Origin: Thermococcus sp. JdFR-02
GTDB lineage: Archaea; Methanobacteriota_B; Thermococci; Thermococcales; Thermococcaceae
Length of the DNA stretch: 64,000 nt
Direction: 5' to 3'
Assembly (NCBI GenBank): GCA_002009975.1
Contig: MTLP01000031.1
Location: 64,001-128,000 of the forward strand
Of the stretch, positions 49,104 to 58,592 are shown in pieces; position 1 is the stretch's first letter; each line of letters begins with the position of its first letter. A program made the position numbers and the translations under genes. Under the pieces are notes generated by a model that worked only from the letters and a program-made list of their open reading frames with translations, made no database searches and was not told where the DNA came from.

Positions 49104-49274
49104 GGAGAAGACTAAAGCAAATGACTTATTAATCTTTATGTTTTGTCAAAATGTCAGAACTCCTCAAAATCTAAGATTCATTTTAGACAATCAACAATGA
49201 AAATTTGATTTTGTCAAATTTTGACGGAAATTCTCCCAAAAAAGCTTTAAGAGTAAAGTTCATTTAAAGACCTT

Positions 49275-49457
49275 GATGCCCTATGATGTTCAGGAGTGAG
49301 TGTCTTTGGAATAGGAGTTAGAGAGTTTAGAATTCTTCTGGTTAGCTTATTCTTCAAAATCAAAGGGCGGGATTGTTTTTGGAATACACATTCTTAGGTT
49401 TGAAGGTATGAATAACGCTTATTCTGATCTTTTTAAACTTTTTAGGAGGTGTTTTAG
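49275..49457 (+). promoter_or_regulatory. Structured 5' leader of trpB2 (putative Trp-responsive RNA switch)
   Basis: TATA TTTAAGAG at 49246; long hairpin 49277-49369; alternative helix with 49415-49425; shares motifs with the leuS leader. Confidence 0.6.
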
Positions 49458-50798
49458 ATGAGAAGAGTTAAGGCAGTTTTAAAAGCCGAAGATATGCCAA
49501 ATAGGTGGTACAACATTTTGCCAGACTTGCCAGAGACTCTACCATTGCCTTTAGATCCAGAGACAAACAAGCCCATAAATCCAGCTAAGCTTGAGAGGAT
49601 TTTTGCAAAGGGATTGGTTAGGCAAGAAGTTAGCGACAAAAGGTATGTAAAAATTCCAGAGGAAGTTTTGGAGAAATACGTAAAAGTTGGTCGTCCAACA
49701 CCGCTTTTTAGAGCAACACATCTAGAGAAGGCATTGAAGACCCCAGCAAGGATTTACTTTAAATATGAAGGGGAAACGATAACGGGAAGCCACAAAATAA
49801 ACACCGCTTTAGCACAGGTCTACTACAACAAGCTTGAGGGAATTGAAAGGGTTGTAACAGAGACGGGAGCAGGACAATGGGGAACTGCTTTATCATTAGC
49901 CGGAGCTTTGTTTGATCTAAAAGTTAGGGTTTACATGGCAAGAGCCAGCTATCAACAAAAGCCATATAGAAAAGTGCTCATGCAAGTGTATGGAGCAGAG
50001 GTTTATCCTTCTCCAAGTGATAGAACGAAGGTTGGAAGATACTTCCTATCGCAAGATCCAAATCACCCCGGTGGATTAGGCATAGCAATAAGTGAAGCGA
50101 TTGAAGATGTATTAACGGATGAAAAAGCGCGCTACTCGTTAGGTAGTGTCTTGAACCATGTATTAATGCACCAGACAATCATAGGGGAAGAGGCTAAACT
50201 TCAAATGGAAATTCTTGGGGAAGAGGCAGACATAATAGTTGGCTGTGTTGGAGGAGGGAGCAACTTTGCTGGAATAGCATATCCCTTCATTAGGGATGCA
50301 ATAAAAGGAAGAAAGGAGATTAAATTTTATGCAATAGAACCTAAAGCCGCACCATCGATGACAAAGGGTATTTACACTTACGATTACGGAGACAGCGGGA
50401 GGTTAACGCCTTTAATAAAGATGCACACCTTAGGGCACATCTACAATGTTCCACCAATCCATGCGGGTGGCTTAAGATATCACGGTGTCGCACCAACTTT
50501 GAGTGTTTTAATTAATAACAACATCGTTAGTCCAAAAGCCTACCATCAAACCGAGATTTTTGAAGCAGCTATGCTCTTTGCAAGGACTGAGGGAATTGTT
50601 CCAGCACCAGAGAGTGCCCATGCAGTTAAAGGGGTTATAGATCTTGCTTTAAAAGCTAAGGAGAAAGGCGAAGAAAAAGTAATACTTTTTAACTTAAGTG
50701 GACACGGACTTTTGGATTTAAAAGGCTATGAAGACTATTTGGATGGAAAAATCCAAGATTATGAACCAAAAGAGATTCCAATTTTGAAAAGCTATTAG
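49458..50798 (+). CDS. trpB2: Tryptophan synthase beta chain, stand-alone TrpB2 type
   Basis: [14 protein letters not shown] (PLP Lys), [34 protein letters not shown]; 446 aa with no trpA nearby. Confidence 0.92.
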
Positions 50799-54597: not shown

Positions 54598-55182
54598 TCA
54601 CTTACCCTTTCTACCTTTTGCCCTAATGCTTGGTCTAATCTTCTCAGCACCTTTACCCTTATTGAGCAATCCTCTACTTCTTTTTCCAGCTGATGTTAAA
54701 CCTCTAAATACTCTACCCTTATGGCCTCTTCCAGCGATCCAAGCTATCTTTGGATCAGATTTAATAACTGGGTGATGTGGATCAACTAAAATTACCTCAA
54801 ACCACTTATACATTCCATCCTCGCCAACCCAATATGAGTTTAGAACTTCCAAGTTTGGATATTTTCTTGCTGCCTTTTCCTCAGCAATCCATTGTAAGCT
54901 CTTCTTTGGTGAATATTTGACTTGACCCATCTTACTTGGCTTTCTTCCGCCTCTCCACCTTGGTCTCTTTCTTCCGCCTCTCCTAACCCTAACTCTCACA
55001 ACAACGTAACCTTGCTTTGCTTGATAACCCAAGCTTCTTGCCCTATCTAATCTGGTTGGTCTCTCAATTCTAATAATGCTTGGCTCTCTTCTCCACTTAA
55101 TCATTCTAACCTTCAACAATTCCCCAACATAGCTCTTCTTTGGGCTTTTCCAAGCTTCTCTAATGTACTTGTACATTCCCAT
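54598..55182 (-). CDS. rpl15e: 50S ribosomal protein L15e
   Basis: [33 protein letters not shown]. Confidence 0.97.
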
Positions 55183-55204
55183 CTTCTTCACCTCGCTTTC
55201 ACTG

Positions 55205-55258
55205 TTTGTGGTTCTCCGCAGAGCGGAACATCCCGCGGGCTAAACCCGCTTAGTCGTG
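55205..55258 (-). promoter_or_regulatory. Structured rpl15e leader (eL15 r-leader-like)
   Basis: Two GC-rich hairpins at 55235-55249 and 55211-55229, between a TTTAAA TATA and the SD. Confidence 0.65.
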
Positions 55259-55298: not shown

Positions 55299-55493
55299 CT
55301 AAGTTTGCACTTTCCTTTTGCGATCCAAGAGTAGTTCTCCATCAATCCCAACATTCTCAGGAGAATTTTCCTTTATAAGCACAGTTATATGTCTTATTCC
55401 ATAAATCTTAGATGCTACCTCTGTAAGTTCCCTAACTAACTTCCTCTTCTTTTCAATATCAATTGGTGGTCCTTCGATGATTATGGTCGGCAT
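55299..55493 (-). CDS. 4-oxalocrotonate tautomerase family protein
   Basis: Starts MPT (catalytic Pro1); EKKRKLV, ENVGIDG. Confidence 0.88.
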   Translation of the reverse strand: MPTIIIEGPPIDIEKKRKLVRELTEVASKIYGIRHITVLIKENSPENVGIDGELLLDRKRKVQT

Positions 55494-55582
55494 CGTATCA
55501 CCCATTAAAATTTGCGTTGAAACATCATAAAAATTTCCTATCTTCCAAAACTTTTAAATACTAAAACCTCAAAAATAACGCC

Positions 55583-55727
55583 GATGCCAATGAGGGGGGA
55601 TAGAGTTCTCAACGATTAAAGGTTACTTCTATGCTGATCCCCCTATTTGGCACTATCAACGCTTTTCCCCTTTTGAAATGCAAACTGTTTTAAGTTCCCA
55701 TTTTAACAACTTCAAGGAGGTTAGGGT
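55583..55727 (+). promoter_or_regulatory. Structured 5' leader of leuS (putative Leu-responsive RNA switch)
   Basis: TATA TTTAAATA at 55553; hairpin 55585-55652; alternative helix 55593-55607 with 55658-55672. Confidence 0.62.
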
Positions 55728-58592
55728 ATGGTAGATTGGAAAGCAATTGAAGAAAAGTGGCAAAAGAAATGGAGCGAAGAGAAAGTCTTTGAACCTCAAA
55801 TTGGTGAAAAGCCAAAATTCTATATAACGGTAGCATTTCCTTACTTATCTGGGCATTTACATGTAGGACATGCAAGAACTTATACAATCCCAGACGTAAT
55901 TGCAAGATTCAAGAGAATGCAGGGATACAACGTATTATTCCCAATGGCTTGGCACATAACAGGTTCACCAATAGTTGGAATTGCAGAAAGAATTAAGCAT
56001 AGAGATCCCCAAACAATTTTCGTTTATAGAGACGTCTATAAAGTCCCTGAGGAGATTCTATGGACATTTGAAGATCCAGTGAATATCGTGAAGTACTTCA
56101 TGAAAGCAGCAAAAGAGACTTTTAATAGAGCTGGATTTAGCGTAGATTGGAGTAGAGAATTCCACACAACATCTCTACATCCGCAGTTCAATGCTTTCAT
56201 AACTTGGCAGTTCTTAAAGCTAAAGGAGAAGGGATTAGTTGTTAAAGGAACTCACAGAGTTAGATGGGATCCTGTTGTTGGGACTCCTTTAGGAGATCAC
56301 GACTTAATTGAAGGCGAAGATGTTCAAATCTTAGAATATATCCTAATCAAGTTCATCTTAGAAGAAAATGGTAAGCGTATTTATTTACCAGCCGCAACCC
56401 TAAGACCAGAAACAGTTTATGGAGTAACTAATATGTGGCTAAATCCAGATGCTACATACGTTAAAGCAAAGGTTAATGATGAAATTTGGGTCATAAGCAG
56501 AGAAGCCGCTTATAAGTTAAGCTTTCAAGACAAGAAGATTGAAGTCTTAGAGGAATTCAAAGGAGAAAAATTAATTGGAAAATGGGTCAAAAACCCAGTA
56601 ACTGGCGATGAAATTATCATTCTACCAGCAGATTTTGTTGATCCAGATAATGCAACCGGTGTAGTTATGAGTGTTCCAGCACATGCGCCCTTTGATCATG
56701 CGGCATTAGAGGACATTAAAAAGAATACTGAGCTATTGTTAAAGTACGACATTGATCCTAGGATTGTAGAAAACATAAGCTACATTTCTTTAATTAAGTT
56801 AGAGGGATATGGAGAATTCCCAGCAGTTGAAGAGGCTCAAAAATTGGGTGTTAAGAGTCAGGAAGATAAAGAAAAGTTAGAGCAGGCAACAAAGAACATC
56901 TACAAAGCTGAGTTCCATAAGGGTGTGTTCAAGATAGAACCATACAAAGGAGTTCCTGTGAGCAAAGTAAAAGACCTGATTGCCAACGATATGAAAGAGA
57001 AAGGAATAGCTGATATGATGTATGAATTTGCTGAAAAGAACGTTATTTCGAGATTTGGAAATAGAGCGGTAATTAAAATTATTCATGACCAATGGTTCAT
57101 AGATTATGGAAACCCAGAATGGAAAGAAAAGGCGAGAGAAGCTTTAGCCAACATGAAGATTTTACCAGAGTCAAGAAGAGCTCAATTTGAAGCTATTGTC
57201 GAGTGGTTAGACAAGAAAGCTTGTGCAAGGAAAGTGGGTTTAGGAACATCACTACCTTGGGACAGGGAATGGGTTATCGAAAGCTTGAGCGATTCAACCA
57301 TTTATATGGCTTACTACACAATTTCAAGAGTTATCAACAAGCATGGAATTAAAGGGGAACAATTAATCCCAGAGTTATTTGATTACATATTCTTAGAAGA
57401 GTTCAGTGGAGCTAGGGAGGAAGAGCTAGGCAAAAAGACCGGAATTCCAAAGGAAGTTATTAGAGAGATGAAAGAAGAGTTCGAGTACTGGTATCCATTA
57501 GACTGGAGATGCTCAGCTAAGGACTTAATTCCAAATCACTTAACATTCTTCATATTCAACCACGTTGCAATATTCAAGAAGAAGCACTGGCCAAGAGGAA
57601 TTGCTGTAAACGGGTATGGAACATTAGAAGGCAAGAAAATGAGCAAGAGTAAGGGTAATGTCTTGAACTTTATTGATGCAATTAAGGAAAATGGAGCAGA
57701 TGTAGTGAGATTTTATATCATGAGCTTAGCTGAACATGACAGTGACTTCGATTGGAGAAGAGCAGAGGTTGCAAAGTTAAAGGGACAATTGGAGAGATTT
57801 TACGAACTAATAGAACAATTTGCAAGCTATGAAATCAGAGAAGGCGTTAAACTAAAAGATATTGATCGCTGGCTATTACACCGCTTAAACAAGGCAATTT
57901 ATGAAACCACAAAAGCTTTAGATGAATTTAGGACAAGAACGGCATCTCAATGGGCATTCTACAGCATTTTAAATGACCTAAAATGGTACATGAGAAGAAC
58001 TGAAGGAAGAGATGACGATGCAAAGCGCTATGTGTTAAGAAGCTTAGCAGATGTTTGGGTTAGGTTAATGGCACCGTTTACACCTCACATCTGTGAAGAA
58101 TTGTGGCAAAAATTAGGCGGAAATGGATTCGTGAGCTTAGCTAAGTGGCCCGAGCCTAAAGAAGAGTGGTGGAACGAGGAGCTGGAAATTGAGGAGGAAT
58201 ACATCAAAGACCTAATTGATGATATCAAAGAAATTCTAAGCGTTGCAAAGATTGAGAATCCAAAGAGGGCTTACATTTATACAGCTGAAGATTGGAAGTG
58301 GAAGATAGCGGAGATAGTTGCCCAAAAGAAGGACTTCAAAGCGGCAATGAGTGAAGCCATGAAAGACCCAGAGATGAGAAAGAAAGGTAAAGAAGTTGCC
58401 AACCTCGTGAATAGATTAATAAAAGAGAGGGTCTTTGAAGTGAAGCGCATTGACGAAGAAAAAGCATTGAGAGAATCAAAAGACTTCATTGAGAAAGAAA
58501 TTGGTTTAGAAATAATTATCAATCCAGAAGAGGATAAAGGTGGAAAGAAGAAGCAAGCAATGCCAATGAAACCTGCCGTGTTTATTGAGTAA
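55728..58592 (+). CDS. leuS: Leucine--tRNA ligase (archaeal type)
   Basis: [33 protein letters not shown] editing motif, ESLSDST, KMSKS. Confidence 0.96.

Follow-up and report, generated by a model that had tools for sequence, protein, structure and literature searches.

A proposed family of +1 frameshift leaders sensing aminoacyl-tRNA ahead of leuS and tryptophan genes in Thermococcus and its relatives

This study concerns the leader of leuS, the gene for leucine--tRNA ligase, in a 64,000-nucleotide (nt) stretch of Thermococcus sp. JdFR-02 (GenBank assembly GCA_002009975.1, contig MTLP01000031.1, positions 64,001 to 128,000 of the forward strand), hereafter called the window, whose own numbering is used for all coordinates. 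The leader is the 145-nt segment ahead of the leuS ATG and downstream of its TATA box (55583-55727), and it holds a short open reading frame (ORF) with a G-rich Shine-Dalgarno (SD)-like block, a putative slip codon and a Leu codon, CTC. From comparative sequence evidence we consider it likely that this leader works as a hungry-codon +1 frameshift relay, coupling scarcity of the cognate aminoacyl-tRNA to the downstream gene.

The autoregulatory +1 frameshift site of Escherichia coli prfB, which encodes release factor 2, reads AGGGGG-UAU-CUU-UGA. The leuS leader resembles it in having a G-rich SD-like stimulator before a CUU (here NUU-U/C) slip codon that can re-pair, a slow A-site codon as the signal, and a frame 0 that closes at once while the +1 frame stays open and continues. 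It differs in that the slow codon is a sense codon, so that the signal would be aminoacyl-tRNA and not release factor, in that the SD-like block lies about 3 nt further from the slip codon than in the generally known prfB geometry, and in that the +1 frame has no conserved protein and leads to a separate gene, with up to three serial sites and an archaeal host. Frameshifting of the prfB class is treated in sections of two reviews (PMC5009743, PMC8211752). Hungry-codon (Gallant) shifts and the yeast Ty1 shift at CUU-AGG-C are described in the corresponding section of the first, where the P-site tRNA slips on CUU/UUU-N while the A-site aminoacyl-tRNA is scarce, and where, for a starvation-specific use of hungry codons, 'no examples are known' as of 2016 (PMC5009743). 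The known hungry-codon cases, as presented in that section, are incidental or yield a set ratio, whereas the site described here looks selected as a sensor of its cognate amino acid.

Other regulatory systems share single features with this leader. The trpL, leuL and pheL attenuators likewise use a short leader ORF with cognate codons and read out decoding speed, whereas here neither conserved 1:2, 2:3 and 3:4 hairpins nor a hairpin terminator is present, one or two regulatory codons replace the codon runs, and the proposed output is a change of frame. T-box RNAs (Rfam RF00230) also govern aminoacyl-tRNA synthetase, biosynthesis and transporter genes and use the specifiers CUC for Leu and UGG for Trp, but here the triplet lies in a short ORF predicted to be translated, and neither a family match nor tRNA-binding architecture is found. 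Translational coupling proceeds by termination and reinitiation at overlapping stop and start codons of the ATGA type; the last leader frame here similarly ends at or near the main start (ATGA in 19 of 28 trpB2 leaders, ATGGTAG in leuS), with the difference that the overlap is reached only after one to three frame changes. Antizyme is a eukaryotic frameshift sensor of polyamines. For zip-2 of Caenorhabditis elegans, a frameshift on mRNA already under translation is reported to be triggered by elongation defects (PMC11831180). In both of these cases, as in our proposal, the frameshift is sensor and effector of a regulatory circuit at once, whereas they differ from it in signal, sequence signals and domain of life, and no relay is known for them.

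For archaea, the passages of a Thermococcus kodakarensis transcriptome study that deal with leaders report no direct in vivo support for attenuators or riboswitches in Archaea and count 245 long 5' untranslated regions, 11 of them on aminoacyl-tRNA biosynthesis genes, which are left unexplained there (PMC4247193). The section on frameshifting in a 2021 review of archaeal recoding names fucA1, with a -1 shift, as the sole cellular case shown, and also lists some viral cases and magnesium chelatase (PMC8211752). Our literature search, which covered few subscription journals, returned no account in Thermococcales of a leader, an upstream ORF or a frameshift for leuS, trpS or trpB2, and an amino-acid-sensing frameshift leader in archaea is apparently undescribed.

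Reading frames and conservation of the leuS leader

In the window sequence, 22 nt separate the TATA box TTTTAAATA (55552-55560) from GATGCC (55583-55588), and this arrangement of TATA, 22 nt and G-ATG is kept in the leuS leaders of relatives, the trpS leaders having TATA, 22 nt and ATG. The leader ORF is predicted to be leaderless, its AUG lying 1 nt past the predicted transcript start, G55583. Its slip codon GTT is followed by C, so that the +1 frame reads UUC there. The source genome carries single genes for tRNA-Leu(GAG), tRNA-Phe(GAA) and tRNA-Val(GAC) and uses CTC at 12.0 per 1000 codons. An initial annotation of the window, made from the letters alone, had drawn attention to this leader, and all sequence features that it read there proved to be present. 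The coordinates of the features are collected in Table 1.

Table 1 Coordinates of the features of the leuS and trpB2 leaders in the window
Feature	Position	Strand	Details
leuS promoter, predicted archaeal	55545..55560	+	A-rich CCAAAAC resembling a B recognition element (BRE), and TATA box TTTTAAATA (55552-55560)
leuS leader ORF, frame 0	55584..55619	+	ATG CCA ATG AGG GGG GAT AGA GTT CTC AAC GAT TAA = MPMRGDRVLND*
leuS SD-like block, internal	55593..55601	+	AGGGGGGAT; 3 nt between block end and slip codon
Proposed +1 shift site of leuS leader	55605..55610	+	GTT, P-site slip codon; CTC (55608-55610), A-site sensor, Leu
leuS +1 frame	55606..55734	+	42 open codons; TAG overlaps leuS codons 2-3 (ATGGTAG)
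C-run CCCCCT	55639..55644	+	Can pair with the SD-like G-run (fold A); +1 reading CCC CCT = Pro-Pro
leuS SD and ATG	55714..55730	+	SD = AAGGAGGT
leuS, leucine--tRNA ligase, 954 amino acids (aa)	55728..58592	+	NCBIfam TIGR00395 leuS_arch, 1215.6 bits (cut-off 648.5)
trpB2 TATA box, predicted	49245..49252	+	CTTTAAGA; 22 nt ahead of GATGCC 49275-49280, same spacing as leuS
trpB2 leader ORF, frame 0	49283..49321	+	ATG ATG TTC AGG AGT GAG TGT CTT TGG AAT AGG AGT TAG = MMFRSECLWNRS*
trpB2 site 1	49292-49309	+	SD-like AGGAGTGAG 49292-49300, slip CTT 49304-06, sensor TGG 49307-09
trpB2 leader +1 frame	49305..49397	+	Ends at TAG 49395-97; contains second module
trpB2 site 2	49365-82	+	SD-like GGGCGGGAT 49365-73, TGT, slip TTT 49377-79, sensor TGG 49380-82
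trpB2 leader third frame	49378..49461	+	Would be entered by the second +1 shift; open to TGA 49459-61; ATGA overlap with trpB2 ATG 49458-60
trpB2, TrpB-like pyridoxal-phosphate-dependent enzyme, 446 aa	49458..50798	+	NCBIfam NF009057, 711 bits (cut-off 366)

The comparison was based on 37 distinct leuS leaders from six genera, drawn from 40 loci that include the leuS 5' end; two duplicates and the locus L021, whose leader is split by an insertion, were left out. Each of the 37 leaders has an orthologous short ORF of the form MPMRG[DE]x[VL]L... ahead of leuS, and in every one frame 0 meets a stop 59-111 nt ahead of the leuS ATG. The sensor codon CTC is invariant across all 37, some leaders carrying CTC CTC, with either GTT or CTT as the slip codon. 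Counting from the codon that precedes CTC, the first stop of the +1 frame falls between -15 and +23 nt of the leuS ATG in each of the 37 leaders, while leader length varies from 99 to 150 nt with 20 distinct values. By shuffling, an open +1 frame has a chance of 0.11-0.44 per leader; multiplied over the 20 length classes this comes to 3e-12, which is an upper bound on the significance because the length classes are related lineages and not fully independent.

The +1 frame contains no ATG, GTG or TTG upstream of the shift point in the leuS leaders compared, the codons at that place being ATA, ATC, AGT or AGG. Moreover, CCCCCT stands in the same +1 phase (CCC CCT) in 24 of the 25 leaders that carry it, at a distance of 31, 34, 37, 40, 43 or 46 nt from the slip codon, and because these distances change in steps of 3, insertions and deletions in the leaders respect the +1 frame. 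A functional micro-protein encoded by this frame was considered and rejected, as substitutions between same-length leuS leaders are spread evenly over the codon positions (115, 109 and 112), in a count that included some cross-genus same-length pairs, which add noise. Judged from these comparisons, the +1 frame must be open, and its peptide, Pro-Pro excepted, does not look selected.

At the nucleotide level, a 301-nt leader query matched 21 of 41 genomes (G000 included); by genus within the family the matches were 5/6 in g2, 3/3 in g4, 5/5 in g5, 5/5 in g6 and 0/5 in g3, and in distant genera the query aligns over the promoter and about the first 30 nt of the transcript only. The block CGATGCYNATGAGGRGGGANNNNSTTCTC recurs upstream of leuS across the genera of the family, and the degenerate pattern WTSAGGRGKGAKNNNSTT has matches in 94 of 97 family genomes, against 18 of 97 for a reversed-pattern control; among the 30 pattern loci listed, 21 lie upstream of leuS, with g3 included though missed by BLAST. 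In these alignments conservation is located at the 5' end of the leader rather than in a fold. A repeat or mobile element was rejected as an identity for the leader, since BLAST against its own genome found no second copy. In genome G009 (L021 and L031) the leader is interrupted after the G-run by an insertion of ~1.2 kb, whose end encodes a TnpB-like zinc-finger C-terminus, the promoter and first 18 leader nt lying 1.2 kb upstream.

The SD-like block was evaluated against the 3' tail of 16S rRNA. The 16S gene is absent from the source assembly, and the tail GAUCACCUCCU was taken from two relatives, whose 16S was located with the Rfam SSU model. The block in the window has a predicted duplex energy of -11.7 kcal/mol, and the mean over 12 distinct leuS slip sites is -11.8 kcal/mol, compared with -9.3 for trpB2 sites, -7.6 for symporter sites (see below), -1.8 for other leader codons and -11.2 kcal/mol for true start sites. 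Aligned spacing from the block to the P-site codon is mostly 2 nt at shift sites versus 3-4 nt at true starts, so a +1 movement would bring back the geometry of a start site. In every case the slip codon is NUU with U or C after it, namely UUU-U and CUU-U in Trp leaders and CUU-C and GUU-C in leuS leaders; for GUU-C we infer from the tRNA-Val(GAC) gene that re-pairing would be partial only.

RNA evidence comes from Logan contigs of four metatranscriptome runs of one study, representing a ~98% identical strain. One contig spans 55472-56165 and another 55620-56184, so that leader and leuS are contiguous in the RNA-library contigs. The strain shows 0 differences from the window at 55538-55714, 8 in 55364-55537 (174 nt) and 9 in 55715-56078 (364 nt).

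The corresponding module ahead of tryptophan genes

The initial annotation had likened the leuS leader to that of trpB2 in the same window, and this likeness is real at the level of the motif (agg ggg gat aga gtt CTC versus agg agt gag tgt ctt TGG) but escapes own-genome BLAST, for which the motif is too short. A module with TGG in the sensor position lies ahead of trpB2 in 28 of 30 loci, ahead of trpS in 30 of 30 and ahead of a gene of the sodium:neurotransmitter-symporter family in 16 of 18, the two symporter loci without it being more distant paralogues. Together with the 37 of 37 leuS leaders that carry CTC, these counts bear out the expectation of the initial annotation that the triplet tracks the amino acid of the downstream gene. 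The symporter is probably a tryptophan carrier.

The trpS leader follows the pattern TATA, 22 nt, ATG xxx GGT GAT TGY TTT TGG, encoding MxGDCFWLW* with two Trp codons, and in the 30 leaders of relatives its +1 frame ends within ~10 nt of the start; the source-genome version, on contig C2, encodes MMKLGDCFWLW*. The source-genome symporter leader, on contig C4, encodes MFRSEGLWIKYC*. Six of the 16 symporter leaders have a single site and reach the start in the +1 frame, and the other 10 stop 32-38 nt short but hold a second module in the +1 frame, from which the next frame reaches the start (a differently tuned script splits them 7 and 9).

In trpB2, one (1 locus), two (7) or three (20) modules lie on the path to the gene. 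The last frame ends between -11 and +11 nt of the start in 28 of 28 leaders, 19 of them with the ATGA overlap (+1). Relay sites in the Trp leaders were picked blind to frame, the sole requirements being XTT-TGG and an SD-like duplex at least as strong as -6 kcal/mol. From one trpB2 site selected in this way to the next, the distance is 1 mod 3 in 44 of 48 cases, with nine different values (25, 28, 31, 37, 55, 64, 67, 73 and 142 nt), the 73 nt between sites 1 and 2 of the window among them, and for the symporter this holds in 10 of 12. Three tryptophan leaders in which a module was lost, through deletion of a single base (L118, L120) or a change of TGG to TGA (L110), still reach the start in frame. 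A canonical start in the +1 frame is lacking at trpB2 sites 2 and 3 in the leaders compared.

One locus, L134 in genome G024, departs from this layout: its TrpB2 frame runs on in the +1 frame right after Trp site 1, there is no separate SD and ATG, and the sole candidate start is a GTG inside AGGAGTGAT. By its sequence it looks like a natural fusion of the shifted leader frame to trpB2. As a further observation, both trpS and trpB2 leaders repeatedly show GGTTAG in the stretch that separates the modules from the SD, and the leuS leader of the window has GGTTAC (55621-55626); in L145, the one trpS leader traced by eye, GGTTAG gives a frame-0 TAG.

Proposed mechanism and competing explanations

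According to our proposal, transcription would start at G55583 and ribosomes would initiate, leaderless, at the 5'-terminal AUG at 55584. With the P site occupied by the eighth codon, GUU, and the A site by the Leu codon, CUC, AGGGGGGAU would pair with the 16S 3' tail at a spacing one base shorter than at real start codons. Prompt arrival of Leu-tRNA(GAG) would let frame 0 end three codons on, 108 nt ahead of leuS, and an empty A site would allow a +1 slip from GUU-C to UUC, opening a 42-codon frame that ends over the leuS start codon. Expression of leuS could then be raised either by termination-reinitiation or by ribosomes covering the nascent leader and preventing an early end of transcription at the conserved U-tract. 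A UGG version of the module would govern trpS, trpB2 (two in series here, three in many relatives) and the sodium symporter. Translation of the shifted frames is very likely, given the comparative frame evidence, and we infer the transcript start, the actual slipping, its increase on starvation, so that scarcity would turn expression up, the output step by which the shifted ribosome would act on the downstream gene, and the role of the Pro-Pro/C-run element.

Several points speak against this frameshift proposal. Frame +2 is open equally far in 16 of the 37 leuS leaders, more than the 0.28 that shuffling gives on average, and leader counts overstate independence because the genomes are related. 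The leuS slip codon is GUU in g1, g5 and g6, where tRNA-Val(GAC) re-pairs with UUC at two of three positions, and since the SD-like block is less close to the shift codon, the prfB geometry does not simply carry over. One RNA contig begins upstream of the predicted start, and such contigs do not define the start, strand or level of a transcript. The 5'-terminal AUG or GUG of trpB2 and symporter leaders is in a different frame from TGG (window 49275-49298); it opens a 7-codon ORF, MPYDVQE*, whose UGA inside the SD-like block overlaps a +1-frame GUG as GUGA. The SD-like GGUGAU of trpS likewise places a GUG in the +1 frame, and because of these in-frame GUG codons ribosomes might reach the +1 frame without a slip at Trp site 1 and in trpS. 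Finally, the main genes have strong SDs of their own, which leaves the output step uncertain, and some route of basal expression must exist, as LeuRS and TrpRS are essential.

The initial annotation had interpreted the leuS leader as a bistable RNA, and as far as the single sequence is concerned its pairings are correct. For 55583-55727 the minimum-free-energy prediction is fold A (-41.3 kcal/mol, z = -2.27, with 4 of 200 shuffles folding as well), with the helices TGCCAA (55585-90) with TTGGCA (55647-52) and AGGGGG with CCCCCT (55639-44) and with CTC unpaired, and fold B joins 55593-55607 to 55658-55672 at 13 of 15 positions, two of them G-U. A conserved bistable fold, in contrast, was rejected: RNAalifold on 25 leuS leaders from six genera gave no consensus for fold A or fold B and only a 6-bp local hairpin (-3.55 kcal/mol). 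The outer helix TGCCAA/TTGGCA of fold A is restricted to g1 and g5, the C-run partner in fold B is lineage-specific, and the region folds differently in g2. Five of six genera share the G-run:C-run pairing of fold A, without covariation because both strands of the helix are invariant. Conserved mutually exclusive hairpins with an intrinsic terminator are likewise absent from the 25 leaders, in which the U-tract CTCTTTTG/A is kept but without a conserved hairpin, and the pairing probability of the leuS SD (0.82 versus 0.81 in shuffled leaders, higher in 23 of 37) supports sequestration neither way.

The U-tract motif itself, (G)CTCTTTTG/A-AAA, is found ahead of the leuS SD in all genera (window 55660-55700; alignment A1 columns ~124-132), and trpB2 leaders of g3 and g5 have TTATTCCCTCnnnnTTTGGGACTTTTTT ahead of the SD; these U-tracts of leuS and trpB2 leaders may be signals for transcription pausing or termination.

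The explanation that survives best beside frameshifting, though an improbable one, is a stalling leader peptide, in which a pause at CUC or UGG would cover the G-run and alter the C-rich pairing or termination at the U-tract, in the manner of the trp/leu attenuators or ermC, the open +1 frames being incidental. The conserved short ORF with its cognate codon fits this, as do the recurrent G-run:C-run pairing, the U-tract CTCTTTTG/A kept ahead of the leuS SD, the two Trp codons of trpS and the CTC CTC of some leuS leaders. It leaves unexplained, however, that the +1 frame stays open as far as the start codon in 37/37, 30/30 and 28/28 leaders, that modules are spaced 1 mod 3 (44/48) and that indels keep the +1 phase, and it finds neither conserved alternative hairpins nor SD sequestration above the shuffled control. 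Of the stalling that the initial annotation had suggested, a gene-specific codon read by the translation machinery stands, but the frame pattern favours +1 frameshifting over simple stalling.

Appreciably less probable is that the long frames are entered by initiation, the SD-like blocks serving as landing sites with a GUG, AUU or AUC start or with GUGA reinitiation, so that the long frames would be upstream ORFs, constitutive and coupled to the main gene, with some other mode of action for the cognate codon. The SD spacing does resemble that of start sites, GUG lies in the +1 frame within GGUGAU or AGGAGUGAU at Trp site 1 and in trpS, and a winged-helix gene described below has the same block followed by ATT, ATC or ATG in the protein frame. 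On the other hand, leuS leaders and trpB2 sites 2 and 3 offer no start-like codon in the +1 frame, a start codon adjoining or inside its own SD has an unworkable spacing, and neither the invariant CTC/TGG nor the early frame-0 stop is given a role.

Slippage of RNA polymerase on G6 or T5 runs, by which transcripts one base short would join the leader ORF to the long frame, is very doubtful: homopolymer runs do occur at many sites (GGGGGG in leuS, TTTTT in most Trp sites), but leuS leaders of g2 have AGGAGGGA, without a run, trpB2 site 1 of the window and the source-genome symporter site have only CTTT, and both the cognate next codon and the SD-like spacing go unexplained.

Whole-window searches with Rfam 15 at the gathering threshold gave no T-box match, and at E <= 10 on 55480-55780 only the chance match Afu_254 (E = 3) was returned, again with no T-box, in agreement with the initial annotation, which had seen no T-box consensus. 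A specifier-type triplet alone is no proof of T-box membership, because it is common to leader peptides. A C/D-box, H/ACA or K-turn small RNA, suggested by GATGCC...CTGATCC, was also rejected, with no Rfam match and with motifs that by eye show no alignment to a K-turn. A riboswitch, T-box-like or otherwise, that binds uncharged tRNA through a displayed CUC or UGG and switches between folds A and B, the main picture of the initial annotation, can hardly be entertained: the stable fold A with its unpaired CTC and the 13 of 15 paired positions of fold B favour it in the source genome, whereas neither fold is conserved, no Rfam family matches, the triplet is always in the frame of a short ORF from the predicted first AUG, and an untranslated RNA cannot account for the frame constraints. 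The switch responding to tRNA charging that the initial annotation had envisaged fits in so far as sensing runs through the ribosome, but a codon displayed in a bulge and direct tRNA binding are unsupported. Overall, what it had found is real and unusual; its core inference, a gene-specific codon read by the translation machinery, is right, and its picture of an RNA switch is wrong.

Further members, neighbouring features and significance

Scans of the source genome returned leuS, trpS, trpB2 and the symporter as the only four convincing matches. Forty extra pattern matches were rejected as family members for other amino acids, being coding regions, ordinary SD-plus-start contexts or a winged-helix gene. 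A motif-free genome scan for leaderless short ORFs with an open shifted frame gave noise (31 at +1 versus 59 in the +2 control), and a two-site genome scan returned trpB2 and one chance match in antisense coding sequence, nothing else.

The winged-helix gene (ArsR/HTH_20-like, ~85 codons, contig C9:24785, L085:201-459; relatives L036-L038, L042-L044 and L064-L070) opens with the same module, ATG AGG RGG GAT nnn [CG]TT TGC. Its frame 0 is a short ORF (MRRDRLC* in g2) and the protein body lies in the +1 frame, whose sole start-like codon, ATT, ATC or (twice) ATG, adjoins the SD-like block, so that either a non-AUG start or a +1 shift at the Cys codon is used. This regulator may be a fifth family member, made only by slipping. 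A similar order of ATG, SD-like block and +1-frame body is seen in a 278-aa gene with a CxxxCxxC-like motif (L082/L187, genome G010, contig C10:143453), which has a GTG start inside ATGAGGAGTGATTCTCTT.

In the neighbourhood of leuS, a 68-aa ORF that matches the tautomerase family (PF01361, E = 4.9e-9; 55299-55505, minus strand) is divergent from leuS and starts 47 nt from the TATA box assigned to leuS, which may serve both strands because its sequence is near-palindromic. Further upstream, Rfam reports an eL15-Euryarchaeota ribosomal protein leader (55205-55248, minus strand; 35.1 bits, gathering 33.7) ahead of a 197-aa ORF (54598-55191, minus strand).

With somewhat less assurance than for the leuS leader itself, the comparative data favour an archaeal family in which chained, SD-assisted +1 frameshift modules in leaderless or nearly leaderless leaders act as amino-acid-specific sensors of aminoacyl-tRNA, with one CUC module for leucyl-tRNA synthetase and one to three UGG modules for TrpRS, TrpB2 and a carrier. 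For genome annotation, the leaders, and perhaps the winged-helix regulator and one TrpB2, need a frame change to be allowed for correct calls. The idea can be tested directly, since some relatives are amenable to genetics, and the compact module of ~30 nt should, if confirmed, have a specificity that can be reprogrammed by a single-codon swap. Were this family real, three firsts would follow: a natural regulatory role for hungry-codon frameshifting, an attenuation-like mode of aminoacyl-tRNA sensing in Archaea, and a frameshift relay of several steps, whose response would be steep because n slips in succession are required. Its confirmation would fill three gaps at once, in archaeal attenuation, in archaeal recoding and in the starvation-specific use of hungry codons.

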